Positions 1 to 56,425 are shown, numbered from the stretch's first letter. The stretch is DNA of 56,425 nucleotides from an uncultured Cytophagia bacterium (GCA_964464205.1 CAYXFI010000001.1:1-56425), one strand, 5' to 3'. Notes: generated from the sequence alone by a model not told the origin. Translations and numbers: made by a program.

Positions 1-199
1 GGGTGCTGCTCGGAGTACTCGAAGGGGTGCTGCTCGGAGTACTCGAAGGGGTGCTCGAAGAAGTCCCTGACGGAGGAGGATCGCTGGGAGTAGGAGTACT
101 CGAAGGGGTGCTGCTCGGAGTACTCGAAGGGGTGCTGCTCGGAGTGCTCGAAGGGGTGCTGCTCGGAGTGCTCGAAGGGGTGCTGCTCGGAGTTGACGA
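1..199 (-). repeat. Tandem 24-nt units encoding (SSTPSSTP)n on the minus strand
   Basis: Repeated ggggtgctgctcggagtactcgaa units visible directly. Related units occur at 56376..56425 and 48558..49617. Confidence 0.85.
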
Positions 200-451
200 C
201 GGTTCCTCAACGACAAATGCCTTAACGGCAATCATCCCGGTGACCGTCGTTCCCATCTTGCTGGCGTAATGTTTCGTCAAACCGGGCCGCGATCCGCCTC
301 TCAAAGCTGAGAGGTACGGATCGACGGTCCGGACATTGACGGCCCAAGGTGATGAGTACACAGAGCGAGACTGAGCTAGCGTGTGAAACGCCTCGCGACG
401 CACCACGCCGGCCTGCGGCCACCGAATCTCAATGGTCTTCGCTTTCGCCAT
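1..451 (-). CDS. Small protein with C-terminal (SSTP)n mucin-like tail; 5' part of a gene that runs off the window start
   Basis: Not in the ORF track because no stop is reached. ATG at 451-449, 10 nt after the stop of the 462..1142 gene. Hand translation MAKAKTIEIRWPQAGVVRREAFHTLAQ...KMGTTVTGMIAVKAFVVEEPSSTPSSTPSS... stays open to nt 1. The frame is continuous with 56368..56425 if the 23-nt end overlap is joined (486 nt, 161 aa). Confidence 0.55.
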   Translation of the reverse strand, partial: MAKAKTIEIRWPQAGVVRREAFHTLAQSRSVYSSPWAVNVRTVDPYLSALRGGSRPGLTKHYASKMGTTVTGMIAVKAFVVEEPSSTPSSTPSSTPSSTPSSTPSSTPSSTPSSTPSSTPTPSDPPPSGTSSSTPSSTPSSTPSSTPSST

Positions 452-1599: not shown

Positions 1600-2820
1600 T
1601 CACATCTCCACATCATCGATGGTAACAGCTCCAACCAGGATAGTTGGAGGCCACTCAAGCCGCTCCTCGCCGCCCTTGTCTGGCCCAAGCTCCGAAGGAC
1701 TCGTCGCGTCCTGGTCCGCAGCAATCGCAGCAGCCAGGAGCTCCTGGAAGTGTTTCGCGTAAACCCCCTCGTTCTCTTCAAGCAGCCGCTCGCCGGCCGC
1801 CAGGCACGCTTCGATGATGACCTGCGACAGAATTTCTCCGCCAATGGGGTAGGGATTCGAGTCGCTGATCATCGTCGGTCGAAGCCGCATCCGGCCAATC
1901 AGCACGTACACGTCATCGGGCGTCGGATAAAGCAGGAGCCGGCGGCGCGACCCGACCGTCGGATCGTATTCCACCGTAACAACCGCCGCCATGAGCGGTC
2001 GATCGGTGTACTCCTCATCCTGCCGATACCGGCGCAGCTTCTGCTCGTGAATGATCGGGATGGGAGGATAGTAGCTCGACGCCTCCGGCTCGTACATGAG
2101 CTCCTCGCCGATGATCGCGTCAAACCCGCTCGGCAAGTCGTACTCGGGACGTCCAAGCGTGTAAGAAGTGCCGGAATCCACATCAACAGACGTATCCTCC
2201 AGCGTGATCTGCGTATCGCTATCTCGTGAGCTGATCCGATAGTTGCCGCTCTCCACCGCAAGCACGCCGCTGGCGGCCCAGGACGGGAATGTCCCGCCTG
2301 TGAGCGTCACCACGCCGCTGGACACCTCAACCGTGCCAGTCGTGTAAGGTTCGCTCGTCGTGATTACCTGCCGAGGACGAAGAAAGCTCCACGGGTAAGC
2401 CGTGTAGACAGCCTGAAGCCCGTGTCGGATGCAGTCGTTGATGTCAGCAAGCTGAGCGGTCGAGAAACCGGAACGAATACCGTAAAGCCGACGACCCACA
2501 ATCTCAACGAGACTCGAATAGCTGACCTCCATCGAATCGGAGATCGCAAGCTCGACGTCGATTTCCGTGTAGTAGGTCGCTCCACGGTAAACCGACTTCA
2601 CCCACGCCGTGTAAGTCAACCCAGACGCCGGCTCAGTAAACTCGTACTCATACTCGCCGGTCGCTGTCTTCGTCATCGCTGTTCCGGCAGAGACGACAGT
2701 AGCACCAGTATCATTGCGTTTGATCCCGTAAGAGCCGTCCTCATCAGACAACACTACCGAATCAGGATCAGTCAGCGATCCGCCGTACTTGAACGAGAAC
2801 TGAATTGTCCGTGTGCTCAT
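1600..2820 (-). CDS. Hypothetical virion structural protein (406 aa)
   Basis: Long ORF, tightly packed in the structural block. No motif recognised. Confidence 0.6.
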   Translation of the reverse strand: MSTRTIQFSFKYGGSLTDPDSVVLSDEDGSYGIKRNDTGATVVSAGTAMTKTATGEYEYEFTEPASGLTYTAWVKSVYRGATYYTEIDVELAISDSMEVSYSSLVEIVGRRLYGIRSGFSTAQLADINDCIRHGLQAVYTAYPWSFLRPRQVITTSEPYTTGTVEVSSGVVTLTGGTFPSWAASGVLAVESGNYRISSRDSDTQITLEDTSVDVDSGTSYTLGRPEYDLPSGFDAIIGEELMYEPEASSYYPPIPIIHEQKLRRYRQDEEYTDRPLMAAVVTVEYDPTVGSRRRLLLYPTPDDVYVLIGRMRLRPTMISDSNPYPIGGEILSQVIIEACLAAGERLLEENEGVYAKHFQELLAAAIAADQDATSPSELGPDKGGEERLEWPPTILVGAVTIDDVEM

Positions 2821-2827
2821 GATCCAC

Positions 2828-3391
2828 CTACGTGTGCGACACGCTCAACGTAACATCCTGAGCTTCGTCGCTGCTTTTGTCTCGTTCAGCCGATACCTTC
2901 CCGCTGGAAGTCGGAAACGCTGGAGATCCTACCCGCAATTCGGCTTTCTCGTACTTGAGCGCGCCACCGAAGTAGTCATACTCCTCACTCCACTCGTGAA
3001 CCAGTGTTGCAGGCGCGTAGCTCATGAGAAGAGTTGCAATCACGTCAGAAATCTCAAACAGGGAAGCATCGTCACAGTCTAACGAGAACCGATCAGTGAC
3101 GTTCGAGAAGCTGTAATCGCCCGGATTCAGCGTCCCAGCGTCGCTGTCCGAAACGATAGTCGCCAACACGTCGGCCGCTTCATCACGACCGCCGGCATCA
3201 TCGCAGTCAAGAGTCCGATCCTCACTGGAATTTGAAAACGTGTAAAGAGATGGGTCCCACGTTGACTCCTGCATGTCATAGATCATCGTCCCGAGAACAT
3301 CAGCAAGCTCATCCAACGAAAAATCAGACAGGTCGATCGTCCGGGTGAGCGTGATGTTCGTAATCGTGAATACGCCGGTCGTGCTGCTCAT
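2828..3391 (-). CDS. Acidic protein with three ~45-aa internal repeats
   Basis: ATG at 3391 overlaps the stop of the upstream glycosyltransferase gene (ATGA). Repeats: DLSDFSLDELADVLGT / LDCDDAGGRDEAADVLAT / LDCDDASLFEISDVIAT. Confidence 0.55.
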   Translation of the reverse strand: MSSTTGVFTITNITLTRTIDLSDFSLDELADVLGTMIYDMQESTWDPSLYTFSNSSEDRTLDCDDAGGRDEAADVLATIVSDSDAGTLNPGDYSFSNVTDRFSLDCDDASLFEISDVIATLLMSYAPATLVHEWSEEYDYFGGALKYEKAELRVGSPAFPTSSGKVSAERDKSSDEAQDVTLSVSHT

Positions 3392-4323
3392 GCTGCTTCC
3401 GCCTCGTGCCAATCCGGAACAGGAGCGAAATGATCAATCAACCACTGAAGCGGATACTTGGCTCCAGGCCACTTGTTGTTCATCCAGAGATCGCGGGAAT
3501 ACGCCCTGGCGTGTTCAACCTGCTTCTGGGAGATCGGGTAAGGCCAACTGGATTCCCCATTCCGCGAAAAGTTGCCGGTACGAAACATGTGAGCAAACCA
3601 CGTCTTCCGAGACGTGACCAGCTTTCCTCCTGACAGCCATGCCTTGCACGCAAGCTCGACGCCGAACTGTCCCCAAGAACCATGAGCCTCGTCCATGCCG
3701 CCCAACTCCCAGTACCGCTCGCGCTCCAGAAACATGCAGGCCCCGTTGCAGCACATCGTCTCAACAATGTCGCCTTGAGACTCCTGGCGTTTTCCATGCG
3801 CTCGCCAATACTTGAACTGGAGGTTCTTGTCGAACCGCCAAGAAATCGTCAGCTTGTTCTTCCTGGGCCCCCAGAGGACCTGCATCGTGAATTCAGACTT
3901 GCCACACTTCTCGCACTTCTGCGGCTGAGAGCCCTGGTACACGACCTCGCCGCAGTTGTCGCACATCCAGTCGAACGCATGAAGGTTGTACATGCTCGGG
4001 ACCATGGTCCAGTTCGGCTGGCAGTCCTCCATCAGCTTGACGTCAAAACCCTCGTCAACGGCGCAGTGAGCGTCGATCTTCATTACGTACTTGGCCTGCG
4101 AGATTCGAGCCCCCTCGTTCGTCGCCGCTCGCTGTCCGATACTCTCCGTGTGATGAACGATCACAACCCGCGGATGATCGTAGATGACCGGAGTTGGCCA
4201 GTAGCCATCAAGAATCGCGATGATCTCCGTATCGGCGCGAAGATTCATGAGGATGTTCTCAATCGTGTTCTTGAGAAACACCTCATTTCGAGCCGGAATG
4301 ATAACTGACAAGTCACGCATCAT
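3388..4323 (-). CDS. GT-A glycosyltransferase resembling the polypeptide GalNAc-transferase (GT27-like) catalytic domain, DxH type, with an inserted zinc ribbon
   Basis: Start is MMRDLSVIIPARNE (ATG 4323, ATGA overlap with the upstream stop). Motifs: SVIIPARNE; KIDAHC (DxH); GGMDEAHGSWGQFGVELACKAWLSGGKLVTSRKTWFAHMFR, which parallels the animal Gal/GalNAc-T motif WGGENxExSFRxWxCGGxLExxPCSxVGHVFR. Inserted CDNCGEVVYQGSQPQKCEKCG. Confidence 0.8.
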   Translation of the reverse strand: MMRDLSVIIPARNEVFLKNTIENILMNLRADTEIIAILDGYWPTPVIYDHPRVVIVHHTESIGQRAATNEGARISQAKYVMKIDAHCAVDEGFDVKLMEDCQPNWTMVPSMYNLHAFDWMCDNCGEVVYQGSQPQKCEKCGKSEFTMQVLWGPRKNKLTISWRFDKNLQFKYWRAHGKRQESQGDIVETMCCNGACMFLERERYWELGGMDEAHGSWGQFGVELACKAWLSGGKLVTSRKTWFAHMFRTGNFSRNGESSWPYPISQKQVEHARAYSRDLWMNNKWPGAKYPLQWLIDHFAPVPDWHEAEAA

Positions 4324-4982
4324 TTCTTCTTGATCACCGCATAGACGATCGCTCTGCCTGTCACCCAACGATCCCAATCAACCATTGACCAGACGCTGAT
4401 GTCCCCCAGCACATCCGTCAAAAAGAATTCCTGCTCCTCGTTCCAGATCCTGCAAAGGTTCCCGCCGCCAAGCTGCTGGATGTTCCAGAAATGCTGCCCG
4501 AGATAACTCTGCTGCCTTCCCTCATTCTCGAAGTGCTCAAGAAAAATCACGCCTCCAGACTTACAGACCCGGAGGAACTCAGAAATCGCCTTCATCGGGT
4601 CTTCGGTATGATCCAGCGCGTTCCTGCAATGAACAAGATCGAACGTACCAGAAGCGTAGGGCATCTCCTCCATGTCCGCATACTCAACAGGATGAACTGG
4701 AGAAATCCCAGCTTCCTCGAACAGCTCCTCCCACTGCTTCGCCAAAATGTCGCAAGCGCGCAATGAAATCTTCATGTGGTCATGAAGCGTTCCAACGGTG
4801 GGAAACGGTCCGCTGCCGACATCCAGAATCGCGACTTCAGGCTTTCCATGAACGAACTTCTCCAGATGGGGCTGCAAGTGAAACTCGCGGTTCCACTCGT
4901 CCGCCTTCCTCTTGATCTTCCGACGGTAATGCTTCAGCGTCTGCCAATACCGCCGCTCGTCAATGACGCTCGTTGAACTCAC
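4320..4982 (-). CDS. Class I SAM-dependent methyltransferase
   Basis: GTG start overlapping the upstream stop (GTGA). Motifs VAILDVGSGP (motif I), FDLVHCRNALDH, GGVIFLEH. Confidence 0.8.
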   Translation of the reverse strand: MSSTSVIDERRYWQTLKHYRRKIKRKADEWNREFHLQPHLEKFVHGKPEVAILDVGSGPFPTVGTLHDHMKISLRACDILAKQWEELFEEAGISPVHPVEYADMEEMPYASGTFDLVHCRNALDHTEDPMKAISEFLRVCKSGGVIFLEHFENEGRQQSYLGQHFWNIQQLGGGNLCRIWNEEQEFFLTDVLGDISVWSMVDWDRWVTGRAIVYAVIKKK

Positions 4983-5710
4983 CTGGAGCCTTTCCTGCTC
5001 AAGTTGTGGAACAATCCGAACGGATTGTAGTCAGGATCTCCGCAAAACCTGCCATTCGGAATCAGATAGAGGACTGGCCGCTCATCGTCCGGAATGAGCG
5101 TGATCTCGCCCTGCTTGGCCAATTGCTTGTAAGCTCGCTTCAGTGGCATCTCCTCTCGATTCGGATACCTTCCGCTCCCAACTTTCTTCTCCGACACGCC
5201 TCCGAGCTTCTCGTAGAGCTCTCGTCTCATCGCAAAGCTGTTGGTGTGAGGCGACACGCGAAATCCTCGACGCCGCCCGGGCTTCCCCGCAAACCCATAT
5301 CGCTTCACGTCCTCCCACGTCTGGACTATTTCTCCATCAACACTCAAAATCGCAACTTCCCGCTTGAACCTGATCACGTCGTACTCAGCTTTCAGAACGG
5401 TCTCAATCAGCTCCTTCGAAATGATGTGGTCGATATCCGTGCAAAGCACCCACTCGCCAGTTGCGCAGTTCACGCCGTAGTTCCGAGCTGCCGGCTGCGT
5501 CCAGGCCGCCGGGTGATGGTGCCGCACAATCCGGTAGCACTTCGGAGCGTCTTGAACTCGACTCATCCCAACAGACAACGGCGGCTCACTTCCATCGTCC
5601 ACCAAAACAAGCTCGACTCCATCAGGCAACGGCATCCTCGCGAAGTGGAGCATTTGCCTCCGCACCACTTCGTGACTGTCGAGGACAGCGATGACGATCG
5701 AAAGTTTCAT
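4979..5710 (-). CDS. Family-2-type (GT-A) glycosyltransferase
   Basis: MKLSIVIAVLDSHE, LVLVDDGSEP, CTDIDHI (DxD). ATGA overlap with the upstream gene. Confidence 0.8.
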   Translation of the reverse strand: MKLSIVIAVLDSHEVVRRQMLHFARMPLPDGVELVLVDDGSEPPLSVGMSRVQDAPKCYRIVRHHHPAAWTQPAARNYGVNCATGEWVLCTDIDHIISKELIETVLKAEYDVIRFKREVAILSVDGEIVQTWEDVKRYGFAGKPGRRRGFRVSPHTNSFAMRRELYEKLGGVSEKKVGSGRYPNREEMPLKRAYKQLAKQGEITLIPDDERPVLYLIPNGRFCGDPDYNPFGLFHNLSRKGSR

Positions 5711-6399
5711 CTGTTTTCCCAGAAAGCCGTCGCGATCTTGTCCTTGGTCACATACCAGGGATCAATGTGATGAGCGTAGGTGTAAGCTCGAACCGCTTCA
5801 ATCACTCCGGTGTCGTGCCACACCATGTCGTGAACCATGATCACCCCGCCAGCACGGACCTTCCTGGCCCAGTAGATGATGTCAGGACAACAGAAATCGA
5901 ACTCGTGGTTGCCGTCAATATGAACGAAGTCGAGGCTTCTGTCCTTGACTCGCGAAAGCGCTTCAGCGCTCGTCGTCTTCCAGAGGCGAACGTTGAGAGA
6001 GGAAAGGTTCTCCACCGCCTGGCGATAATTGCGAGCCAACCGCTGACTTCCACACCACGGGTCAATGCCGATCAAATGAAGATCAGGATTCGCCTTGCAC
6101 CAAATCAGCGCCGACTTGCCGCGAGCAACTCCGATCTCCGCTCCAAGACGACAGCCCATATCGCGCAGCAAGAAACCGAGCGACTCCCGCCCAGGGTCCC
6201 GGCGCGCAGTGCTGAGCGGCCGAGCGAGGACCGGAAGATTCTCCAGCGCCCTACCGCGGAACTTGAAGTGCTTCCTCAGGCAATCCTCGAACGAGGCCGT
6301 TTTTACGGCCCCTGGCTCTGGAGTTCCTTGAGGTACTCCTGCTGGAACTGAGCTTTCGCCAGCGTGAGAACCGCCTGTTCTTCGTTGATCCGTTTCCAT
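5707..6399 (-). CDS. Class I SAM-dependent methyltransferase (CmcI/Methyltransf_24-like)
   Basis: GAEIGVARGKS, IGIDPW, FVHIDGNHEFD, GGVIMVHD. Start uncertain: ATG 6399 overlaps the upstream gene by 97 nt, and the next in-frame ATG is at 6159. Confidence 0.7.
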   Translation of the reverse strand: METDQRRTGGSHAGESSVPAGVPQGTPEPGAVKTASFEDCLRKHFKFRGRALENLPVLARPLSTARRDPGRESLGFLLRDMGCRLGAEIGVARGKSALIWCKANPDLHLIGIDPWCGSQRLARNYRQAVENLSSLNVRLWKTTSAEALSRVKDRSLDFVHIDGNHEFDFCCPDIIYWARKVRAGGVIMVHDMVWHDTGVIEAVRAYTYAHHIDPWYVTKDKIATAFWENR

Positions 6400-6743
6400 T
6401 CCGCCAAAGCTCCCAAAAAGAAGGCCGCCTTCGTTTCAACGTCGTCAGTTTGGCGCACTCGTCCCTTGCTCAGCACGCCAAAGCGATCAAGAGTCTTCTT
6501 CAAAGCCGCATCGCTCAATGGCTCCGCTTTGCCATTGATCAGAACTCCAAGGATCAAACCAGCGCGTTCCTTCGCACCGAGAGGCGCAAGAGGAGGAGAC
6601 ACATCAGCTTTTGCGACCAACGATGCTGTAGCCGGCTGCTTAACGTCCTCGCCGTTAGTTGCGCAGGCCATGCACACGAAGAACACTGCCATCATGGCGG
6701 CATAAGCACAGAATTGAATCGCGTCGCTTTTATGCTTGCTCAC
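6303..6743 (-). CDS. Putative secreted or lipoprotein-like protein
   Basis: GTG start overlapping the upstream stop (GTGA). N-terminal hydrophobic AYAAMMAVFFVCMACATNG with a possible lipobox Cys. Confidence 0.45.
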   Translation of the reverse strand: MSKHKSDAIQFCAYAAMMAVFFVCMACATNGEDVKQPATASLVAKADVSPPLAPLGAKERAGLILGVLINGKAEPLSDAALKKTLDRFGVLSKGRVRQTDDVETKAAFFLGALAEWKRINEEQAVLTLAKAQFQQEYLKELQSQGP

Positions 6744-7147
6744 GGCTCCACCTCCGCTCCTTCTTCGGTTCCTAGATCAGTTTCCAGCTCGGTATCAGTC
6801 TCGGTCTCAACGGTCGTGTTCGCCGTCTTCTCTTTCTCATGCTTGAGAAAGCTGCGATGCCACTTCCGCAACTCGTTGAGATAGAAGCGGGCCTTCGTCT
6901 TGTTGTCAGCCTCCTGATCTCCATGATGGTACTGCCAGACAAGATCCGCCCACTTGGCGGCTACCTGTACGCTTGCGTAGTCCACCTTGTCGGCCGCGTA
7001 GTTGGCGGGGGTCGTGACGTTGCCGTCCTTGATCAGGTCCATGATGATGCGAGCACGGACAACGTGCGAGAGCGGAGCAGCAGTGACCGGTTGAGTGATC
7101 GCGGCCAGCACGAGCAGAGCCGCCAGAATGAGCGTGAGTCGTTGCAT
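6740..7147 (-). CDS. Secreted or membrane-anchored small protein
   Basis: ATG 7147 preceded by AGGAGG. MQRLTLILAALLVLAAITQPVTA-AP looks like a signal peptide or anchor. Acidic T/E-rich C terminus. ORF track gives the longer 6740..7210. Confidence 0.55.
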   Translation of the reverse strand: MQRLTLILAALLVLAAITQPVTAAPLSHVVRARIIMDLIKDGNVTTPANYAADKVDYASVQVAAKWADLVWQYHHGDQEADNKTKARFYLNELRKWHRSFLKHEKEKTANTTVETETDTELETDLGTEEGAEVEP

Positions 7148-7157
7148 CGGATGCCTC

Positions 7158-10145
7158 CTAATTGGAAAGGATGTGGTCGTTTTCACGGGCGAGACGAACC
7201 AACACGTCAAGCATACGCGGTGTCAGTCTTCGTCCTTGGAACTCCATGAACTCATCCGTCACAGCAAACACCGGCCGAAGCCCAGCCATGTATCGTTGCT
7301 TGTCTGCTGGGGCGGCGTGGTAGATCGACTTGCCGGTCTCCCAACGGTCGCTGTGCCCCAAAGCAAAGCCTTCCGAGTAGCCGTCGAACAGATCAGCCTC
7401 CATCATACGCCACTTGTTTTCGAGGCTGACTTCGGCGCCGTTGACAAGATCAGCCCATACGTTAGCCCATTGGGCGGTCGTCTGCTCGCCGAAATCATAC
7501 GTTCCGTCCGCACCCGGTTTGATATGGCCGCGTACGGTCTGCGCTCCGTCGGCCGCAATCAGTAACGCGCTCGTCCACGAAATCGCTCCGTCCGCCGAGC
7601 CAGCCGCAGCGTATAGGAATTCGTGCGTTCCGTTGCGTTGCCGGTAGGCGGTTGCTTCATCGGCAACCATATATTCCCAACGGGAATCGGTAGCGTCGAA
7701 GTATGCGTTCGTTGTGACGTACGTATAGTTTCCGGCGGCCGCCGTATGCTCCGCGCGAAACGCCGAAACGCCACCGAGTTGGATTACGTCATACGTTGCG
7801 GACCAGTTTGCAAGCGATCCGCCTACAGAAAGGTTGTCATCGAAACGAGCGTTGTCAACAACCCATAACGACCACGGATTGGTGATAGTCATGTTGGTTC
7901 CCGCCGCTGGGGCGCTTCCGACTTTTAGCGTAGCCGCGTTCGTAGTTGTGACACTACTGTTTGCAGCAGCTAATGTTGGTTGACCAATGAAAAAGTTACT
8001 CCAACCAGTATGTGTACCGCTAGCGGCCGTTGACCCATCCGTAAATGTTCGACTGAAAAGTTTTGTTAGAGGCGTGCCAGCCGAAGAATAGTTGATGTAG
8101 AATTGCATCGCCTGTTCGCCAGGTCCGGCGATAATATCAATAGAACCAGGGTACTGTGATCCAATGCCGGCTCCCACGGCATCCCTGTCAGGAATCAACG
8201 TCGGGTTCGTCGCACTCGCAGCCTCGTTCTGCAGCGCCCACGAGCCAGCCGTGCCGCCTACTGCGTTTACCTTAATGTCAAACTGCGTTTTCGCCGCTCT
8301 CCATATTTCGGTAGAGTCCACGATCCCCGAGACGTAAGCGTTGGCCTCCGTGGCGTTGTAGGCCCCGCCGATGCCGGTGCCAGTGTTACCAAATATTGCA
8401 AATAGTGGATTAGTAGCACTGACTAGTTCGTTCATGATAGCAGCATAACCATTTGCACCAGTACACCTAACGTTTTTCTTTAGCGTAATTGCAGAACTCG
8501 TTGTTTCAATGATAGAACTTCCATTCACAATAATATACAACCCTGTATTACCATCTGCACCCAATCCAGTCGCAGTACCCGCATTATCCGGGCAGATCGT
8601 TGGGTTCGTCCTGCTCGCCACTTCGTTCTGCAACGCCCACGAGCCCGCTGTGCCGCCCGTAACGTCGCCGTCGTTGGCGATCGTCATGGCGGTGGTCCAG
8701 GTAATAGCCCCGTCCGCCGTACCAGCAGATGCAACCCGGAAAACATGGGTGCCGTTAGCTTGTTTATAGTTGGCTGCTTCGTCGCCTACCGCACCTGATC
8801 CACGAATATACTTCCAGCCCGGCGTGGCGTCATAGTAAGCGTTGCTGGACAAAAGCACACTGTCACCACCGGCGGGAGTCGTCGGAGCCGTCAAAGAACC
8901 AATCCCACCCCACTGGATTGTACTGTAAGAAGTGTTCCATGCTTCCGGCGTCACCCCGATCCCGACATTGCCGGAGGAGTCGAGAATGAACTCGTTCGTG
9001 TTCGCCGTGATCGTACCGGTGATCTTGATATCGCTATTGGTCGTATCCACCGCCAACACATCCCCCGCGTCGCCGTCCTTGCGGACGAGAAGGGCTTCGG
9101 GGTCGGTGTCGTCGATGATCTGCTTGCCCTCAAGCGTGAAACTCGTAATCCCCGACAACGTTCCACCCGTAATCGACACACTGTTCGCATCCTGCGTTGC
9201 AATGCTGCCGAGCCCGATCGTTGATCGAACAGTTGCAGCATCAGCATCATCAAGAATCGATCGTCCAAAAGCAGTAAGCGCTGTTACGTTGGCCGCGCCT
9301 GAACCCGTGAAATAAGGCAATTTGTCCGCGGCGGAAGTCAATCCAGCCAGAGCCGCCAACTCCGCATCGTACGCCTGAACATCCGTACCGATCACAAGCC
9401 CCAGAGAAGCGCGGGCCGTCGCCCCCGATTCCGCCACCCAGTTCGCTCCGTCCCCCACAATGAAATTGCCGTCCGTCACTGCAAGAGCCGCAATGTCCGT
9501 CAGCCCCGCATCCGACGCCTGAAACGTCCCGCTCGTCGGCGTCAAATCGACATCCTGATCCGGCATCGTAATCGTCCGGTTCGTCGAGCCGGAAATCGCC
9601 GATACGTCCCATGTCGCTGTCTTGCTCGAATCCGCCGAATCCGCAATCTTGAGCCCTGTCACAAAGAGCGTCGTACCGTCGAACGTGAACCCTGCATCCT
9701 GCGCAATCTGGTTCGATCCATCCTCGTACAACACCCGAGTCGCCGTTCCGCCGGAAATCGCCCCGCCGATCGCCATCGTAACGCTGCCCGTAAACGTCGT
9801 TGCCGTCACCGTGTCCGCATAGACGTTCGTGTATCGAACAGCGTTGGATCCGAGATCATACGTCGAATCAGCCGACGGAATCAAATCCGCCCCGACCGTG
9901 ATCTTTGGCGTACTCGTGTCCACACGGAAAACAACAGCCGAAGCGCTCGTCATGATGTCCAGCGCATCCGCCCGGTCGCTGTCCACCTTCAGCGCAGAGA
10001 AATCCCAGTCGTCCGCAACCGTGTCATAAACAATCGACGTATTGCTCGATCGAATCGCACCGAAGATCTGCGTTTCAGCTCGAAGAGAACGAGGAAACGC
10101 CAACGCCGCCAACATGGCGACAATCAAGAAATGCTTGCTCGCCAT
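7158..10145 (-). CDS. Tail-fibre-like large structural protein (995 aa)
   Basis: G/T/A-rich beta-type sequence. Internal duplications: [18 protein letters not shown] twice, and NGTH.F...AG.ADGAI.WT twice. [15 protein letters not shown]-type fibre motif. The N terminus [23 protein letters not shown] looks like a Sec signal. Confidence 0.65.
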
Positions 10146-25728: not shown

Positions 25729-26478
25729 CTATCTACAAGTCCCGCCGGCGCAGCGACTCCGAAACAAAAACAAACCCCTAGCCGGCGCTGCTGGAGATCG
25801 TGAGGGAGCGACAACAGCAGGCCGTGGACGCCATAGGTGAAACTGTCCCCATCGCGTCGCACGGCCATCTTTCCACGCATGGCGATATGAGATCGCCAGG
25901 CGAAGCCTGTTGTATCTGCTGAACTTCGCAGCACATCGCACCATCACGTCCTGAGGAAGGTAAGCGTAGACCACAGTCGCTTGGCTCAAGTCCGATCGCG
26001 TCGCGTCAGCCTTGTAGAACCGCGTGAGCCGCGCAACACCGTTCAGCTTCGCGTTTCGCTGGGCCAGCTCGACCGCTTCCGGCCGCAGGTCCAGCCCAAC
26101 CGACCGGCAACCGAACTCGCGCGAGGCCAGCACGCAGACCCTCCCGTCACTGCACCCAAGGTCATAGAGCACATCGTCGGCGGTCAACTTCGCCTCGCGT
26201 AGCACTTGCTCGATTTCCGACAATGGCGTTGGCGTGTTGACGCACACCTTGTACTCTTTCGACCGCAACGCCCGGCACATCGGGCAGTTACAGGCTCCCG
26301 GCAAGTAGCCGCTGGTCCTTCGCGTCTCGTACTTGGGTTGCTCGGCATAGGAAAACACCCACTGGTTGCTCTGCGTACGATACCGCACCACGTCCACATC
26401 GAGTAAGACTTGTGGCTCAGCCATCAGAGCCGTTGTAAGCAAGAGTGCAAACATTACCAAACCCCTAGTCGTAGTCAA
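25729..26478 (-). CDS. SAM-dependent methyltransferase with N-terminal signal peptide
   Basis: MFALLLTTALMAEP hydrophobic leader. NTPTP...VLYDLGCSDGRVCVLAS (motif I), VGLDL, ATVVYAYL, AISYRHAW. R/P-rich C-terminal tail of doubtful reality. Confidence 0.65.
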   Translation of the reverse strand: MTTTRGLVMFALLLTTALMAEPQVLLDVDVVRYRTQSNQWVFSYAEQPKYETRRTSGYLPGACNCPMCRALRSKEYKVCVNTPTPLSEIEQVLREAKLTADDVLYDLGCSDGRVCVLASREFGCRSVGLDLRPEAVELAQRNAKLNGVARLTRFYKADATRSDLSQATVVYAYLPQDVMVRCAAKFSRYNRLRLAISYRHAWKDGRATRWGQFHLWRPRPAVVAPSRSPAAPARGLFLFRSRCAGGTCR

Positions 26479-36725: not shown

Positions 36726-36765
36726 CTGTCGGTTCCTGTCAGTTCCTGTCAGTTCCTGTCAGCTC
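36726..36765. repeat. Four tandem 10-mers CTGTC(A/G)G(T/C)TC
   Basis: 36726-35, 36736-45, 36746-55, 36756-65. On the coding (minus) strand this reads GAGCTGACAGGAACTGACAGGAACTGACAGGAACCGACAG-ATG. Confidence 0.9.
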
Positions 36766-37316
36766 CACTTGATCCCTTCAACCGAGAACCGTCCGAAGTA
36801 GCCGTTCTTCCGCGGACGGAAGAACCCGATCCCGATGAATTGCCCGGCGTCCACGAGGTGGGCTTCAAAAACCTCCTTGTCGATCGTCTCGTCGAAGATA
36901 TTGAACGTTACGTCAGCTTCCCATTGATCAATGACAGGAAACCATTTCCACACGCGAGAACCGTCACCGCGCCGCCCGCTCGCTGGAACGAACAGCTTCA
37001 GCGGTTCCACGTCCTTGGCCTTGATCGGCAGAACAACGGGGTCCAGGACGAGAATCCCAGCCTCGAAGTGCTTGGTGTACGTCGCCTTTCCCTTACCAGG
37101 GATCTGGATCGACTTGTACTTCGCCGCCTCGGCAATACAATTTTTGAACGCCATCGGCGGGATGAAGACGTACCCGTCTTTCGTGACGTGCATCCGCTCA
37201 CGCCAGTTCTGTTTCTCGAACTCATTGTGAGTCATGTCGCGCGGCTTCTCGCTTTGAAAAGCAGCAGACTGACCGTAAGGGGAAACGCTCTTCAAACTAG
37301 CAACCGCGATCTTCAT
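36759..37316 (-). CDS. Hypothetical protein (185 aa)
   Basis: AAGGAG RBS. No motif named. Confidence 0.55.
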   Translation of the reverse strand: MKIAVASLKSVSPYGQSAAFQSEKPRDMTHNEFEKQNWRERMHVTKDGYVFIPPMAFKNCIAEAAKYKSIQIPGKGKATYTKHFEAGILVLDPVVLPIKAKDVEPLKLFVPASGRRGDGSRVWKWFPVIDQWEADVTFNIFDETIDKEVFEAHLVDAGQFIGIGFFRPRKNGYFGRFSVEGIKWS

Positions 37317-37343: not shown

Positions 37344-37558
37344 GTCTCGTCTCGGCCGGTCGAGTCGCGTTGTATCGAGTCTTGTTCCATCCCGTCCTGT
37401 CGGGTCGGGTCGTGGCGGGGCTGGCCTGATCTCATCATGTCCTGTCGGGTCGGGTCCTGTCGGGGCTGGCCTGATCTCATCATGTCATGTCGTGTCTCGT
37501 CTCGTCGTGTCCTAACCTGTTCAGTCTGGTGCAGGCGCGTCGGGTCTGGTCAAGTCAT
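37344..37558. repeat. Phased pentamer array A, (GTCNN)n, ~43 units
   Basis: 25 GTC, all starting at coordinates ending in 4 or 9, none in any other phase. Includes a 45-bp tandem duplication, 37394-37438 / 37439-37483. Confidence 0.9.
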
Positions 37559-38086: not shown

Positions 38087-38284
38087 GTCTTGTCATGTTC
38101 GGTCACGTTGAGTCTCGTTATGTTCCGTCACATCTTGTCTCGTCTCGTCGGGTCCGGTCATATCGAGTCCGGTCATATCCAGTCCAGTCCGGTCCCGTCA
38201 CATCTTGTCGGGTCTCAATCAGTCCTGGCAGGTCAAGATGAGTCCGGTCGTGACTCGTCCCGTCTCAATCAGTCCGGTCGGGTC
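38087..38284. repeat. Phased pentamer array B, (GTCNN)n, ~40 units
   Basis: 27 GTC, all starting at coordinates ending in 2 or 7. Sub-repeats CCGTCACATCTTGTC x2, GTCCGGTCATATC x2, GTCTCAATCAGTCC x2. Confidence 0.9.
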
Positions 38285-47085: not shown

Positions 47086-47087
47086 GA

Positions 47088-47906
47088 TCACGGTCCCCAA
47101 GCGTTGCCGTACATGTCTCTCGAAATACCGAGTATTTTGTTGGCTTCTGTTATGGCTTCCTCGGTACTCATCCCTTCATTTGAACTTTTCAGATCGGCGA
47201 TCAGTGCGGCTCTCTTCTCCATCAATGCGGCTCTCGCTTCCTGCAACTGCTGTTGTTGCTGAGCTTCGAGCATCTGTTTTCGTTGTGTCTCGGACACAAG
47301 CTGACCAACCCCGCCACCCTGTAGAGGATATGACCCCGGGTATTCCTCCTTTGTCCAACCAACAACCCTTTGCTTCATCATCTCTTCAGGAGAAAGCGGC
47401 TGGTATCCCTTTGCCAAGATGCTGTCGATCTCATCATGAAGAAGCCGCTTGCGGTTCAGGTAATCAGTATAGTCCCCTCCGCCATGGGCCTGTTGATTCC
47501 GCCACTGCTTCTCTAACTCATCGAGGTTCTGCTTCGCCTTCTCCAGGGCGATCTCTTGAGACTGATCCAGCTGGAGCTTCCCCTTCGTCTTGTCGGCCAG
47601 CATGTCTCGGCGCCGCCAGCCCTGGAGCATCTGGTCGCGCAAGGTGCGCTCGCCGAAGCGAGACCTGGCGTACTTCTCCTGGAAGGAAAAGCCGCTCTGC
47701 TGCATCTCCTGGCGATTCCGCCAATCTTCTGCCTGCATCTCCCGGCGGTTTTGCCAGTCGGTTTCTTGCATCGCCTGGCGATTTTGCCAGTCTTGGTTTT
47801 GCTGCCAGATCCCCAGTTGAGCCAGCGATGCAATTCCAGGTCCGCCCATCCCCGTGCGAACGCCTCGATACCCGCTACCGCCGCCGTATTTGAGCCTAAT
47901 GGGCAT
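47088..47906 (-). CDS. Q/N/R-rich helical protein (272 aa)
   Basis: ATG 47906 (MPIRLKYGGG). Three DWQNR..MQ 11-aa repeats. Confidence 0.5.
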   Translation of the reverse strand: MPIRLKYGGGSGYRGVRTGMGGPGIASLAQLGIWQQNQDWQNRQAMQETDWQNRREMQAEDWRNRQEMQQSGFSFQEKYARSRFGERTLRDQMLQGWRRRDMLADKTKGKLQLDQSQEIALEKAKQNLDELEKQWRNQQAHGGGDYTDYLNRKRLLHDEIDSILAKGYQPLSPEEMMKQRVVGWTKEEYPGSYPLQGGGVGQLVSETQRKQMLEAQQQQQLQEARAALMEKRAALIADLKSSNEGMSTEEAITEANKILGISRDMYGNAWGP

Positions 47907-48558
47907 GGACAAGCTCCTTTTCCTTCTTTCGCCAATGAGGCTGGATCGGGACGTAAGCCGCGATCTTGACGGCCTCGTCGATCTGCTCCTGTGTTGGCTC
48001 AATTCCCAAGTCGTCGATCAGGCGCAAGACGTGACCGAGCGGGTCGTCCACGTACCGCCTCGACTCGACAAAAATCGCGTCGTGATTAAGAGCTGCGTCG
48101 GCCGACTCCGCCCACAGCTTGCTTTCGATCTTGCATACCCACCTCCTAGACCAGTGCATCTGGAAGCGGAGCGCCTCGAAATGGCTCTCGGTGAATAACA
48201 GCTCCGGACGAACGTAGCAGTAAATCACCTTCGTGTCATCGCCCCACGCGGCAATCACATCATCAACGCAGAGAGAAAGCATCGGATGCGACAGCGCGTA
48301 ATGCTCGCTCTCCATTTCAGCGTACATCGCCCATTCCGTGAAGAAGCCATGCCGCTCCGCTCTGGAGGCTTCGTCACTCATATCGGGGAGCGGGAACCAT
48401 TTCATGATCGCTTCTTTCAGGAGCGGGTCCCTGTACGCGCAGATCGGAGACTTCTCGATCGCGAACTTTCGCATTCCGAGCAGGACGCCGAGGCGATGCA
48501 GGATGCCGGCTATCCTGAACATGCTCGAATTGTAGGTTCCGATCGTGATGGCTTTCAT
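47896..48558 (-). CDS. Hypothetical 220-aa protein, tentatively sulfotransferase-fold
   Basis: ATGA overlap with the upstream mucin-like gene. KAITIGTYNSSMFRIAGILHRLG, AYRDPLL and C-terminal YVDDPLGHVLRLIDDLGI loosely resemble sulfotransferase 5'-PSB, 3'-PB and C-terminal signatures. A weak match, judged by eye. Confidence 0.5.
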   Translation of the reverse strand: MKAITIGTYNSSMFRIAGILHRLGVLLGMRKFAIEKSPICAYRDPLLKEAIMKWFPLPDMSDEASRAERHGFFTEWAMYAEMESEHYALSHPMLSLCVDDVIAAWGDDTKVIYCYVRPELLFTESHFEALRFQMHWSRRWVCKIESKLWAESADAALNHDAIFVESRRYVDDPLGHVLRLIDDLGIEPTQEQIDEAVKIAAYVPIQPHWRKKEKELVHAH

Positions 48559-50618
48559 GGCGCTGGTGATGGAGATGGAGAAGGCGTCGGTGTTGGAGTC
48601 AACGTTGCCGAAGGCGTGTTCGATGGAGTCGAACTCGGCGTATTCGACGGGGACGAGGACGGCGTTGAGGATGGAGTTTGCGAGGGAGTCTGCGAAGGAG
48701 TGCTGCTCGGAGTCTGCGAGGGAGTCTGCGAGGGAGTCTGCGAAGGAGTGCTGCTCGGAGTCTGCGAGGGAGTCTGAGAAGGAGTCTGCGAAGGAGTTTG
48801 CGACGGAGTCTGCGAGGGAGTCTGCGAAGGAGTCTGCGAAGGAGTCTGCGACGGAGTCTGCGAGGGAGTCTGAGAAGGAGTTTGTGAGGGGGTGCTGCTC
48901 GGGGTGCTGGAAAGCGTACTCGAAGGAGTTGAGCTCGGAGTCGAGCTTGGCGTGCTCGTTGGTGTTGTGCTCGGCGTGCTAGAAGGCGTCGAACTTGGGC
49001 TCGGCGTACTAGAAGGCGTCGAGCTGGGCGTTGAGCTAGGACTGGGCGTGCTACTTGGCGTCGAAGACGGCGTGCTGCTCGGAGTCGAGCTTGGGCTCGG
49101 CGTTGAACTGGGCGTGCTGCTTGGCGTCGAGCTGGGACTCGGAGTCGAGCTGGGAGTGCTGCTGGGAGTCTGCGAAGGCGTCTGCGAAGGCGTCTGAGAA
49201 GGAGTTTGCGAAGGCGTCTGAGAAGGAGTTTGCGACGGGGTCTGCGAGGGCGTCTGAGAGGGTGTCTGAGAAGGTGTCTGCGAAGGAGTGCTGCTCGGAG
49301 TCGAACTCGGGCTTGGTGTGCTAGACGGCGTACTAGACGGCGTGCTGGATGGAGTCGAGCTCGGGCTCGGCGTACTCGACGGCGTTGAAGAAACCGTACT
49401 TGACGGCGTTGAAGAAACCGTACTCGACGGAGTGCTGCTCGGAGTCTGAGAAGGCGTCTGCGAAGGAGTGCTACTAGGAGTTGAGCTTGGACTCGGCGTG
49501 CTACTCGGCGTTGACGAAGGAGTTGAACTCGGAGTACCTGACGGAGAACTTGAAGGAGTCGAACTTGGCGTACTGGAGACAGTGCTGGAAGGAGTTGAAC
49601 TCGGAGTGCTGGAAGGAAGTATTCCTCCACAATCGCCGGCGTTCAGAACAAACCAAAAATCCGCAACCATTCGCGGCGGGTGAATGTACACCAGCGTTCC
49701 AACAGGAAGATATCCGGCAACGTTCAACGGATGATTTTCAACGATACCAATGGCATCTAGAATACGAACCTCGCAATCTGTTAATGCTATTTGATTAGCA
49801 AACCCTTCGCTCAAAAGATACGCATGATCACTAAGGATCTTGGCATAACCAGTGCTACATGGTGGCAAGACGGTTGTCAAAATAGCTCTTCTGAGACGTT
49901 CCGCTCTCCATGTTCGTCCTGCTGTATTCAAGTCCATCCAGAGTATTGGATTACCATCATAATCAGTGAGCGCATCGTATGGATCATCTGACGAAACAGT
50001 ATAACCAACCCACTCCGGCCTAGCTTCATAGTTATCTAAATCCCTTCCAAGATCCCCGGGGTATGGGTGTTCTGAATTATAAACTGCTGACTTCGGAACG
50101 TTCTCTCCATGGATGCCCCACATTCTAGCGGCAACAATGAGCTCGCCGATATAGTAAGCTGGCCACACAGTCTCGAAATACTGTATCTCTTCGATTCCTT
50201 CTGGGCCTCCTTCCACTACCTGGGTTTTGTATTCAACAGTTCTGTAGTACGGCAAATAGTGAGAAAAAGAAGGCGGGGGGTTTTGGTATCGCTGCGATGT
50301 TTCTGGATAACTGCTATAGTTGCCCGGGTTATGCTCTTCTCGCTTCCCGAAATCAAATTGCTTGCCGTAAATCCGAAATGATTCACGCAACAATGGAGGC
50401 CGTGCAACGTTCACTGATTCTAAATATGAACGGTGAAATGGGTCCCAGCCTTCACACTCAAGGAAGTCTGCATGAATGTACTTGACCCGCATGACCGCCA
50501 GATAGGACGGTTGGGGCAGAATGCCTAGAGGCGCAGTCGCTCCGGTCCTGGGGTCCCAGGGAGGCTCCTGACGAAATTCAGGAGCCAGCTTTCGGTATCG
50601 CTTTGGAGGCCTTGCCAT
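48555..50618 (-). CDS. Virion-block protein: ~335-aa globular head plus ~350-aa Ser/Thr/Pro tandem-repeat (mucin-like) tail
   Basis: Repeat tail of SSTP, SQTP and PSPS units running to the C terminus. In the structural gene block. Confidence 0.75.
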   Translation of the reverse strand: MARPPKRYRKLAPEFRQEPPWDPRTGATAPLGILPQPSYLAVMRVKYIHADFLECEGWDPFHRSYLESVNVARPPLLRESFRIYGKQFDFGKREEHNPGNYSSYPETSQRYQNPPPSFSHYLPYYRTVEYKTQVVEGGPEGIEEIQYFETVWPAYYIGELIVAARMWGIHGENVPKSAVYNSEHPYPGDLGRDLDNYEARPEWVGYTVSSDDPYDALTDYDGNPILWMDLNTAGRTWRAERLRRAILTTVLPPCSTGYAKILSDHAYLLSEGFANQIALTDCEVRILDAIGIVENHPLNVAGYLPVGTLVYIHPPRMVADFWFVLNAGDCGGILPSSTPSSTPSSTVSSTPSSTPSSSPSGTPSSTPSSTPSSTPSPSSTPSSTPSQTPSQTPSSTPSSTVSSTPSSTVSSTPSSTPSPSSTPSSTPSSTPSSTPSPSSTPSSTPSQTPSQTPSQTPSQTPSQTPSQTPSQTPSQTPSQTPSQTPSSTPSSTPSPSSTPSSTPSSTPSPSSTPSSTPSSTPSSTPSPSSTPSSTPSSTPSPSSTPSSTPSTTPTSTPSSTPSSTPSSTLSSTPSSTPSQTPSQTPSQTPSQTPSQTPSQTPSQTPSQTPSQTPSQTPSQTPSSTPSQTPSQTPSQTPSSTPSQTPSQTPSSTPSSSPSNTPSSTPSNTPSATLTPTPTPSPSPSPAP
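48558..49617 (-). repeat. ~1.06-kb array of 12-nt (4-codon) S/T/P-coding units
   Basis: ggagtctgcgaa / ggagtctgcgag / ggcgtgctgctc type units visible throughout. Confidence 0.9.
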
Positions 50619-54978: not shown

Positions 54979-56358
54979 CTACCTGACTTTTCCTGATTGC
55001 CCAGTTTCAATAATCGCTGTCTCGTAGGCCCACTTCGCCGTGGACTCGATCCACAGCACAAACCACTCAGCTCGAATCCGCGGGTACACGATCGAGTTGA
55101 ACCCTCCAGAGAGAGTGCCGGTCGCCGCCACATACGCCAAGTGAGACGTGTCGCTGCTGTCCGTTCGCGCCTGGTAGGCCTCGATGGCGAGCTTACCATT
55201 GGCGCAGGCTTCTTCGGCCGTGTCGCCTGTCACGAGGAACCAGGTTGCGGCGCCGCTCGATTCGGCAAGCCGGGCCCGAAGCGTGTTGATCCGCCCAAAG
55301 GTTCCAGCAGCAGCCGTCCTAAACGGCCCTAACAGAACATGGCTCTCGATGTCCTCTCCATCATCATCGTCGCCGCCAATGCTCCGCAGATACCCGTCCT
55401 GACACGCCAGAACCACGCTGCCGTTGTGCCACACTGCAGAAACAGGCTGATGATTCTCCTGAAGAGCGACACTCCAAAACGCAAGCCGTACCGTATCGAA
55501 GAACCAGTGAGTTCCCGTCCCAGAAGACGGCGTGAGAAAGATCCAGACCCCCTGTTCCTCGGGCGAATAGACGAGACTCACCGTCACGCTATCTGCAATG
55601 TCAATGAGCTCTTTCGGAATCCGATCGCCAGAAATCCGCGTGAGGCCATCGCCTGATGGAGTCACAAGGTAAAGCCCATCGGTCGCCAAGAAGATCACGC
55701 CGTACTTGACAACCCTATCGCCAACAACTCCATCCTGAATACTGCACCACGCTGTCTTCCCGATGATTCCAATACCGCGAGACACATTCTTAAGCGACCC
55801 CCCAGCGGCCGGATCTCCCTGCACAACCCAAAGACTGTACTTCGTTGCCGCAAGAAGATAAGAATCGCGGAACGGAATCAGAGCTTTCGTCGTCTCGCCA
55901 ATCTCCGCCGCCTCACCAAGCTGAAACGCAACAGGTTGGCCTGGTGCGCCCGCGACGACCCCATAATCCCAATCGGTGTAATCCCCCTGCCGTGACATGT
56001 AAATCGCATTGTCGCCGCCCGCTAATACAAGACGATCGCGGTAGATGCAACCAACGACGCACCCAGTTGGAACAGTTCCCTCCGTAGCTTCCAGGGTAGT
56101 GACAACCCCGGTTTGCACGTCGATAGACTCGACTCCAGTTGCGTCGATAGCGTAAATGCGAGATCCACTCACGCACAGATAACATGTTGGAATCTCCCCA
56201 GAACTGGCAGACAAAACCAAACCACCCTCGTCCAAAAGCGCATCACCGCTTTCATCAAGAAGCGTTCCAACAGGAGTAGACAAAACACCATCCTCATCGA
56301 TGACCTTTAAGGTTTGATCGGCCAACACAACCAGGTTGGTGCTGATGTTTTCCGGCAT
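54979..56358 (-). CDS. Hypothetical virion-block protein (459 aa), beta-propeller-like by composition
   Basis: Repetitive beta-strand pattern. Placed by position. Confidence 0.55.
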   Translation of the reverse strand: MPENISTNLVVLADQTLKVIDEDGVLSTPVGTLLDESGDALLDEGGLVLSASSGEIPTCYLCVSGSRIYAIDATGVESIDVQTGVVTTLEATEGTVPTGCVVGCIYRDRLVLAGGDNAIYMSRQGDYTDWDYGVVAGAPGQPVAFQLGEAAEIGETTKALIPFRDSYLLAATKYSLWVVQGDPAAGGSLKNVSRGIGIIGKTAWCSIQDGVVGDRVVKYGVIFLATDGLYLVTPSGDGLTRISGDRIPKELIDIADSVTVSLVYSPEEQGVWIFLTPSSGTGTHWFFDTVRLAFWSVALQENHQPVSAVWHNGSVVLACQDGYLRSIGGDDDDGEDIESHVLLGPFRTAAAGTFGRINTLRARLAESSGAATWFLVTGDTAEEACANGKLAIEAYQARTDSSDTSHLAYVAATGTLSGGFNSIVYPRIRAEWFVLWIESTAKWAYETAIIETGQSGKVR

Positions 56359-56367
56359 ATGAACGTC

Positions 56368-56425
56368 CTAAGGAGGATCGCTGGGAGTAGGCGTGCTCGA
56401 AGGGGTGCTGCTCGGAGTACTCGAA
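56368..56425 (-). CDS. 3' end of an S/T/P-repeat ORF (...SSTPSSTPSSTPTPSDPP*), probable continuation of 1..451
   Basis: Hand translation. TAG at 56370-56368. Same frame as 1..451 under the 23-nt overlap. Confidence 0.5.
   Translation of the reverse strand, partial: SSTPSSTPSSTPTPSDPP

Follow-up and report, generated by a model that had tools for sequence, protein, structure and literature searches.

The DNA analyzed here (the window) is a stretch of 56,425 nt from an assembly assigned to an uncultured Cytophagia bacterium (GCA_964464205.1 CAYXFI010000001.1:1-56425), and the system in question is an operon of four enzyme genes, for two methyltransferases and two glycosyltransferases, on its minus strand. 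The window represents an entire phage genome. Its final 30 nt are identical to positions 18-47 and also to 99-128, which shows that the genome is circular and was cut inside the second of two repeat arrays described below. Five closely packed open reading frames (ORFs) occupy positions 2828-6399 of the minus strand in the order A-B-C-D-E. In agreement with the initial annotation, which was made from the sequence alone, coordinates, strand and Pfam assignments place a methyltransferase, a glycosyltransferase of family GT2, a second methyltransferase and a glycosyltransferase resembling the polypeptide N-acetylgalactosaminyltransferases (ppGalNAc-Ts) in this order between virion genes. The 4-nt start/stop overlaps that it listed were also recovered from the reverse complement, at ATGA 5710-5707, GTGA 4982-4979, ATGA 4323-4320 and ATGA 3391-3388, the last leading into the 187-aa ORF E (2828-3391). 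Such overlaps are common in this genome (10/57 same-strand junctions in a crude gene set that missed 2 of the 4 operon junctions) and are ordinary close packing of a late operon, nothing peculiar to this one.

Gene D (3388..4323, minus strand) encodes a protein of 311 aa with a GT27-like catalytic domain (Pfam Glycos_transf_2, E 3e-10) and a zinc-ribbon insert, a rubredoxin-like Cys4 stretch. Searched against the PDB as a single sequence, D gave its best matches to ppGalNAc-T9, T2, T10 and T1 (E 8e-7 to 5e-4) over the region of the Gal/GalNAc-T motif; a profile built from 40 homologues reached E 5e-10, with the top 13 matches all ppGalNAc-Ts and the N-terminal half, including LDAHC, also aligned. 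The AlphaFold2 model of D (pLDDT, the predicted local distance difference test, 91.7; pTM, the predicted template modelling score, 0.90) was searched with Foldseek, and all of the top 50 PDB matches were ppGalNAc-Ts (human, fly and Toxoplasma; E 1e-15 to 1e-13), at query-normalised TM-scores of 0.55-0.68 and 16-20% identity. Invariant in the 40 homologues are D84-A85-H86 (DxH) and the distal H245 (in AHMFR), which align to LDSHC/LDAHC and GH(I/V)FR of GalNAc-T9 and GalNAc-T1, as well as W217-G218..G221-x-E223 (WGxxGxE) and the four cysteines C121, C124, C137 and C140. From the Gal/GalNAc-T motif (WGGENxExSFR), the WGxxGxE part is kept and GGEN is replaced by GQFG. No ricin-type lectin domain, stem or membrane anchor was found in the 311 aa of D, in which Pfam shows GT2 and zinc-ribbon-like regions only and the N-terminus is not hydrophobic; because these elements are absent and GGEN is replaced, D is called GT27-like and not a member of GT27. 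Profile and fold searches thus placed D beside protein O-GalNAc transferases, as had been suggested from the sequence, and not beside polysaccharide, lipopolysaccharide (LPS) or nucleotide enzymes. D is presumed from these relationships to be the initiating protein O-glycosyltransferase, with a donor sugar that need not be GalNAc. Its fold matches in BFVD were unnamed or generically named proteins of uncultured phages and giant viruses, including giant-virus glycosyltransferase and glycosyltransferase-methyltransferase proteins, and weak PDB matches of both B and D were obtained to GalT1 (5hea) of the serine-rich repeat glycoprotein pathway.

The partners of D are encoded upstream of it on the same strand. 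Gene A (5707..6399) encodes a class I S-adenosylmethionine (SAM) methyltransferase of 230 aa (Pfam Methyltransf_24, PF13578, E 2.6e-20), whose PDB sequence matches are O-methyltransferases of the small-molecule or sugar type (3cbg, 5lhm and Rv1220c, E ~1e-4). Homologues of A at 31-48% identity were present in most of 48 D-containing loci tabulated, making A a conserved core partner of D. The ATG of A (6399) overlaps the upstream 146-aa ORF (6303-6743) by 97 nt, with no other in-frame start before the conserved region, and this start is probably right because a homologue in a relative (L202) aligns from residue 7. Gene B (4979..5710) encodes a GT2-family glycosyltransferase of the GT-A type (243 aa; Pfam PF00535, E 8.8e-12) with a D-I-D motif of the DxD type; its homologues (36-51% identity) stand at the same cassette position in ~15 loci, and it is presumed from its family to be the chain-extending enzyme. 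Gene C (4320..4982) encodes a second class I SAM methyltransferase (Methyltransf_11/25, 220 aa; Pfam PF08241, E 2.9e-14), with PDB matches that include YcgJ and the D-glucose O-methyltransferase 6uv6. C is not conserved in sequence in most relatives, where a different small methyltransferase (family F1) is found instead. None of the four enzymes A-D has a hydrophobic N-terminus. ORF E (2828..3391, minus strand), coupled to D by the last ATGA, encodes an acidic protein of 187 aa and is part of a variable cargo segment absent from relatives; no Pfam or PHROG match and no homologue in any fetched locus was found for it. By eye, it contains three internal acidic repeats of ~45 aa each (FSLDELADVLGTMIYDM / DEAADVLATIVSD / LFEISDVIATLLMS).

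The two proteins with long Ser/Thr/Pro tandem repeats that had been named as likely acceptors are both real by translation. The first, of 687 aa, is encoded in the structural module (48555..50618, minus strand) and consists of a 334-aa N-domain followed by a 353-aa tail of PSSTP/PSQTP repeats (~48558-49616); the tail contains 224 Ser/Thr, and its composition is 39.7% Ser, 25.8% Pro, 23.8% Thr and 7.9% Gln. The tail uses all six Ser codons (79 TCN and 61 AGY), which indicates selection on the protein sequence. For the N-domain, no PHROG match and no homologue in a search of 5.8 billion proteins were obtained; its orthologues in relatives of the window were recognised by synteny only. The second candidate (1..451, minus strand) has as its first 80 aa the N-terminal segment of the tail nozzle protein; an array of PSSTP repeats then extends across the circular junction and ends at 56368..56425 (minus strand). 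The contig ends (1-193 and 56396-56425) lie in this array, which has a period of 24 nt, and the repeat reading frame is preserved across the overlap of the ends as far as a TAG stop at 56370-56368; because the assembly breaks inside the array, its length and copy number are uncertain. The ATG of the nozzle body (56358-56356) is in frame with this stop, three codons later, and the nozzle could be made as two polypeptides, the first of them ending in the repeats, or by stop-codon read-through, or the split could be an assembly artefact.

The phage is a SU10-like podophage and the operon lies inside its virion (tail) module, as concluded from the fold matches of the 459-aa protein to podophage tail and nozzle chains together with the gene order. 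On the minus strand, the large terminase and a SU10-type portal are followed by proteins of 375, 359, 285 and 139 aa, a 995-aa tail fibre, two small ORFs, A-B-C-D-E, a 406-aa protein, proteins of 125 and 248 aa, the short repeat protein, the 459-aa protein, proteins of 773 and 671 aa, the 687-aa repeat protein, proteins of 220 and 304 aa, and a 2090-aa protein, so that the enzyme operon is flanked by the tail fibre on one side and by head-tail adaptor and nozzle genes on the other. The 459-aa protein (54979..56358, minus strand) is a beta-propeller and represents the tail nozzle body. Its AlphaFold2 model, built from 40 homologues (pLDDT 88.3), gave best Foldseek matches in the PDB to the SU10 tail (7z4f, 7z47), the Pa223 tail, the PhiM1 nozzle and fibre complex, the Pan3 and VP1 tail or portal-tail complexes and the T7 nozzle gp12 (7boy). 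Searched by sequence, neither the nozzle family nor the adaptor had a match in the PDB, and the nozzle was identified by fold search only. The tail fibre (7158..10145, minus strand; PHROG tail-fibre families, E 1.6e-14 and weaker) is the upstream neighbour of the cassette and belongs to the same cargo segment. The 406-aa head-to-tail adaptor (1600..2820, minus strand), homologues of which at 39-56% identity carry weak or faint Pfam SU10_adaptor matches, forms the downstream border of that variable segment; in one relative (L193) the adaptor directly follows the 285-aa gene, with no cassette in between.

Homologues of D were abundant in metagenomes (>2,700, of which the best 120 are 62-74% identical), and a search of 1.84 billion cluster representatives (50% identity) with the D profile returned 368 at E<=1e-30, many of them multidomain. 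Among 185,579 species genomes only 8 loci were found, all on contigs of 3-78 kb in metagenome-assembled genomes. The assignment of these genomes to bacterial and archaeal phyla unrelated to one another suggests that phage contigs were mis-binned; judged by these searches, the D family is essentially confined to phages. A tblastn search of INPHARED (50,697 phage records) with D gave one weak match only (30% over 29% of the query), to an unannotated human-faecal phage record, and no close relative of the window was found among the same number of deposited phage genomes. When the first 46 D loci were fetched, they had D (46/46), A (28/46) and B (10/46) in common with the window and none of its structural genes, which points to the cassette being a mobile module that passes between unrelated phages. 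The initial annotation had placed the system in a different, high-G+C lineage, where it held that such a pairing of enzymes and repeats would be new. The G+C content of the window is only moderately high (~57-58%) and the module occurs in many phage lineages, and on these points the proposal had to be amended; its novelty stood, in that full-text literature searches brought up no account of phages in which a GT27-like enzyme goes together with Ser-rich repeats.

Ser-rich repeats were surveyed in the regions +/-10 kb around 56 D loci, with 15 helicase-anchored loci as the control, and an ORF was counted if it lay no more than 10 kb from D, was encoded on that strand and contained at least 60 residues in (S/T-x)n runs (n>=10) or in PSSTP-type repeats. 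Ser-rich repeat ORFs were found at 42/56 D loci and at 0/15 controls, with 60-980 repeat residues, typically at least 140. The closest relatives of D are accompanied by the PSSTP unit of the window, and more distant ones by repeats of the SPSESPSES-, SPSASVSPS- or SKSISKSIS-/SASISKSIS- type. The recurrent gene order is repeat gene, short DxH glycosyltransferase, Methyltransf_24, small methyltransferase, which GT2, GT4, GT17, DegT aminotransferase or radical-SAM/B12 genes (Pfam) may accompany, and then a long form of D. Of 36 non-redundant loci, 21 have a repeat gene immediately beside a gene of the cassette, where 8.8 would be expected by random placement (P ~5e-6). The repeats are mostly C-terminal tails, not inter-domain linkers, and the non-repeat parts of the proteins fall into >30 unrelated clusters, several of which match tail-protein PHROGs; this indicates that repeats were grafted many times on different virion proteins, along with the cassette.

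Other ways of scoring repeats were tried and set aside. A loose criterion (>=80% S+T+P in 30-aa windows) scored 17/46 D loci but also 5/15 controls, with short poly-Thr and Thr/Pro linkers, and a criterion of >=45% S+T in 40-aa windows was dropped after it picked up spurious alternative-frame ORFs in the controls. As a reverse test, IMG/VR was scanned with a degenerate DNA pattern for (PSST)4P; the scan returned mostly PTxT linkers, as WSN also codes Thr, and was unusable for this purpose. It contained ~5 true PSSTP loci, two of which had cassette genes in the short stretch retrieved.

The composition of the cassette varies among relatives. In most of them D is long (~530-570 aa) and has a C-terminal domain of ~230 aa with no Pfam match (for example, L020 9968-11614), which in one locus is a separate ORF (L001 7769-8446), and a second, shorter DxH glycosyltransferase paralogue without the zinc ribbon directly follows the repeat gene; the window has neither that C-terminal domain nor the short paralogue. 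Extra tailoring genes in these cassettes encode Sulfotransfer_2, DegT/DnrJ aminotransferase, radical-SAM/B12, GT17 and GT4 enzymes (L197 6207-8133; L202 7716-8336; L020 8868-9968; L013 8796-10016; L001 8443-9213), and their presence suggests that the glycans may be sulfated, aminated or otherwise diverse among phages.

Comparison within the lineage of the window was made with nine syntenic relatives, recovered by anchoring on the ATPase, the major capsid protein and the nozzle (major capsid proteins 41-67% identical). The 773-aa protein, used as a query for relatives, retrieved none, and the ATPase query alone gave 2 loci only, too few for a control, but led to the true relatives. Ser-rich tails were found in 5/5 genomes with the cassette and in 0/5 without it. 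The former are the window, L197 (a TARA scaffold), L198, L199 and L202. The latter are L193/L194, L190/L192/L195, L196 and L200, in which the cassette is absent and no tails were found even at a looser threshold, and L201, which carries a different cassette without D (GT4, two Methyltransf_21 and an exostosin-like glycosyltransferase) and has no Ser-rich tails. In the cassette-bearing relatives, tails of 22-144 residues of the SSSPSSSPSASPS type stand on conserved structural proteins, namely the homologues of the 248-aa and 773-aa proteins, the C-terminus of the nozzle and neighbouring ORFs; at least one tail carrier is a virion protein. D in L197, L198, L199 and L202 is 57-61% identical to that of the window and is accompanied by A (Methyltransf_24) and B-like genes, except in L198, a short contig that shows only D and a partial B; the cassettes of L197 and L202 include sulfotransferases. 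In L194 and L195, a single repeat-free ORF of 541-562 aa joins the orthologue of the 80-aa N-terminal segment directly to the nozzle body, and the orthologue of the 687-aa N-domain is an ORF of 351-379 aa without a tail (29% identity, E 1e-17). The co-occurrence of the operon with Ser/Thr/Pro-tailed proteins, first noticed in the window, thus recurs across unrelated phages, as presence and adjacency, and is complete within the lineage of the window. As with the profile and fold searches, this outcome favours the initial interpretation. In L201, the replacement cassette (3539-10026: GT4, two Methyltransf_21, an exostosin/GT47-like glycosyltransferase and a faint GT2) occupies the same place upstream of the nozzle gene and, by its gene content, may be a second, different virion-modification system.

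Taken as a whole, these data make it probable, in our judgment, that the operon is a phage-encoded system by which repeat tails on virion tail proteins are O-glycosylated, and the sugars O-methylated, in the cytoplasm. Late in infection, soluble D, with a nucleotide sugar and a divalent metal held by the DxH...H site, would put the first sugar on Ser/Thr hydroxyls in the disordered PSSTP/PSQTP tails of the 687-aa protein and of the N-terminal nozzle fragment; a repeat peptide of the type PSSTPSSTPSQTP is a candidate substrate for D. B would extend the glycan, and A and C would O-methylate sugar hydroxyls. Such a pathway would be soluble and independent of a lipid carrier, and it would give the tail dense, projecting brushes of mucin-like, methylated glycans, with shielding, solubility or adhesion as likely roles.

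Several points weigh against this interpretation. It is based throughout on homology and genomic association. GGEN of the Gal/GalNAc-T motif is not conserved in D, so that D and GT27 may use different donors and, conceivably, different classes of acceptor. The repeat genes of the window are not adjacent to the cassette and lie 5 ORFs or 3-9 kb away, and the N-domain of the 687-aa protein has no detectable homologues outside the lineage of the window and no assigned virion role. Fourteen of the 56 D loci have no repeat ORF; these are mostly truncated loci, but L008 and L010 have none over 10 kb upstream and ~5 kb downstream. Finally, only 15 helicase-based loci served as the control, which was not habitat-matched. 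The distance between cassette and repeat genes in the window would also fit an explanation in which the cassette glycosylates structural proteins elsewhere, for example on capsid or fibre surfaces, and the repeats are mere flexible spacers travelling along, as would the frequency of Thr/Pro-rich linkers with no glycosyltransferase nearby (the short ones in controls under the loose criterion, and the many PTxT linkers of the DNA scan). We consider this unlikely: the D-linked repeats are long, Ser-dominated and mostly terminal tails, unlike generic Thr/Pro linkers, and they come and go on orthologous proteins exactly with the cassette. The GT27 enzymes, which are closest to D in structure, act on disordered peptide of this Ser/Thr/Pro-rich kind. 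The shortcomings of the control, and the near-duplicates among the D loci, could be taken to mean that common descent or a common habitat lies behind the association, with repeats and glycosyltransferase both common in one environmental phage group. This is very unlikely, given that the D loci and the window have no structural genes in common, that the carriers fall into >30 unrelated clusters, that adjacency exceeds the permutation expectation after removal of near-duplicates, and that the co-variation of 5/5 and 0/5 holds inside one syntenic lineage, including a member with a different glycosyltransferase cassette.

Two further explanations place the enzymes outside the virion. GT2 enzymes and SAM methyltransferases are typical of polysaccharide loci, homologues carry the JGI label 'glycosyltransferase involved in cell wall biosynthesis', and some relatives have DegT aminotransferase, GT4 and sulfotransferase genes, like O-antigen clusters; the cassette might on these grounds alter a host envelope glycan (LPS, capsule or cell wall), for serotype conversion or superinfection exclusion. 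Pfam and the sequences showed no flippase, polymerase, GtrA/GtrB-type or other membrane protein, however, and the enzymes lack a hydrophobic N-terminus, in which the cassette differs from serotype conversion of the GtrABC type, where temperate phages supply a bactoprenol glycosyltransferase bound to the membrane, a flippase and a transferase that is itself an integral membrane protein. The near absence of the D family from cellular genomes gives no sign of lysogenic conversion, the genes lie within a late structural operon and are translationally coupled in it, and the link to repeat-tailed virion proteins would be left unexplained, so that we regard modification of the envelope as quite unlikely. 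Hypermodification of the phage DNA with glycosylated and methylated bases, as a defence against restriction, is in our estimate extremely improbable. Phage glycosyltransferases are classically DNA-modifying, and a Methyltransf_24 relative bears the PHROG label 'DNA methyltransferase' (phrog_2675), but the larger ORFs of the window, when scanned, included no dCMP/dUMP hydroxymethylase or other base-modification gene and no thymidylate-synthase-like enzyme, nucleotide-sugar enzyme, flippase or polymerase. In contrast to T4-like glucosylation of hydroxymethylated bases, where a base hydroxymethylase and a DNA glycosyltransferase belong to the nucleotide-metabolism module, the cassette lies in the structural and not the replication module; the fold relatives of D act on polypeptides, and the association with repeat-tailed proteins would again go unexplained.

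The proposed glycosylation of virion tails has partial counterparts in several known systems. The ppGalNAc-Ts (CAZy GT27) initiate mucin-type O-glycosylation in eukaryotes, with UDP-GalNAc as the donor, polypeptide Ser/Thr as the acceptor and a retaining mechanism. D shares with them the GT-A fold, the DxH and distal His site, which in these enzymes binds Mn2+, and WGxxGxE, and its predicted acceptors are Ser/Thr/Pro tandem repeats; it differs from these Golgi enzymes, with their lectin domain and their anchor and stem, in being phage-encoded and by prediction cytoplasmic, in its Cys4 zinc-ribbon insert, in the replacement of GGEN and in its low identity. The serine-rich repeat glycoproteins of Gram-positive bacteria (Fap1, GspB and PsrP) undergo cytoplasmic O-glycosylation initiated by GtfA/GtfB. 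Here, too, a Ser-rich acceptor gene stands beside genes for soluble glycosyltransferases (42/56 loci; adjacent in 21/36), and glycosylation would be stepwise with no lipid carrier; the repeats of the window are PSSTP/PSQTP, and those of relatives are of the Ser-x dipeptide type, as in serine-rich repeat glycoproteins. Initiation would, however, fall to a GT27-like (GT-A) enzyme in place of the GtfA/GtfB GT4 pair, the repeats are carried by virion proteins, and there is no cell-wall anchor; neither the GT4 pair nor the accessory SecA2/SecY2 families were found by Pfam in the window cassette or its neighbours. Among giant viruses, A064R of chlorovirus PBCV-1 combines two glycosyltransferase domains and a sugar methyltransferase domain. 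Such machineries resemble the cassette as virus-encoded sets of glycosyltransferases and methyltransferases that make methylated virion glycans independently of the host endoplasmic reticulum (ER) and Golgi, and they differ from it in their glycosyltransferase families, their acceptors (which are not Ser-rich repeats) and their eukaryotic hosts, with no sequence relationship shown.

Two papers (PMC12363180, PMC12619734) summarise the work of Freeman et al. 2023 on mycobacteriophages (Che8, Corndog and Myrna), whose glycosyltransferases are reported to modify C-terminal extensions of capsid and tail-tube proteins. The system described here would be alike in using phage glycosyltransferases for the phage's own structural proteins, at C-terminal extensions and in the host cytoplasm, though in this case as predicted from genes. 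It would differ in placing the glycans on long, Ser-rich tandem repeats of tail proteins (the nozzle and others) and not on the ends of capsid or tail-tube proteins, in that methyltransferases are core to the cassette, and in that the hosts are uncultured environmental bacteria. The tblastn search of INPHARED gave no actinobacteriophage match for D, and so no relation to mycobacteriophage glycosyltransferases of the Che8 gp110/Corndog gp38 type. To our knowledge, virion glycosylation by phage enzymes has been established experimentally only in some mycobacteriophages so far. The present system is unrelated in sequence to theirs and much more widespread, with hundreds of clusters, almost all on phage-like contigs, and it offers a clear, testable enzyme-substrate pairing.

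A broader proposal, to which we would give slightly less than an even chance, is that the soluble zinc-ribbon relative of the ppGalNAc-Ts is a mobile mucin-type module in unrelated phage lineages and habitats, including marine ones (the TARA scaffold), that it starts glycans on grafted Ser-rich virion tails, which would later be methylated and in some phages sulfated or aminated, that glycan brushes are common and overlooked on environmental phages, and that the family may be a relative or source of the catalytic domain of eukaryotic GT27. Confirmation of the glycosylation system itself would change the picture of the phage surface, in its charge and stickiness, in its resistance to proteases and in how it interacts with mucus or host glycans, would provide a compact soluble toolkit for mucin-type glycoengineering in the bacterial cytoplasm, consisting of a GT27-like enzyme and a PSSTP tag, and would supply a prokaryotic-virus counterpart for tracing the origin of the ppGalNAc-transferases.

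Additional features of the window were recorded. The two small ORFs upstream of the cassette (6303-7210, minus strand) have, by eye, hydrophobic N-termini resembling those of signal peptides or lipoproteins, with no family matches. At the end of the tail module, the 2090-aa ORF (40828-47100, minus strand) has no Pfam match and one weak PHROG match (phrog_3074, E 0.0074); it is kept in relatives, at ~2040-2090 aa in L200 and L202 and with 32-34% identity to L194, and its product may be an internal protein of the virion that is ejected. Apart from the cassette, the replication module encodes a third SAM methyltransferase (25729-26478, minus strand; Methyltransf_25/31, DOT1/PrmA-like). Short tandem repeats with periods of 10, 45, 25 and 15 nt lie at 36726-36766, 37394-37496 and 38087-38189, between small genes near the helicase, and may be iterons or origin-type repeats.

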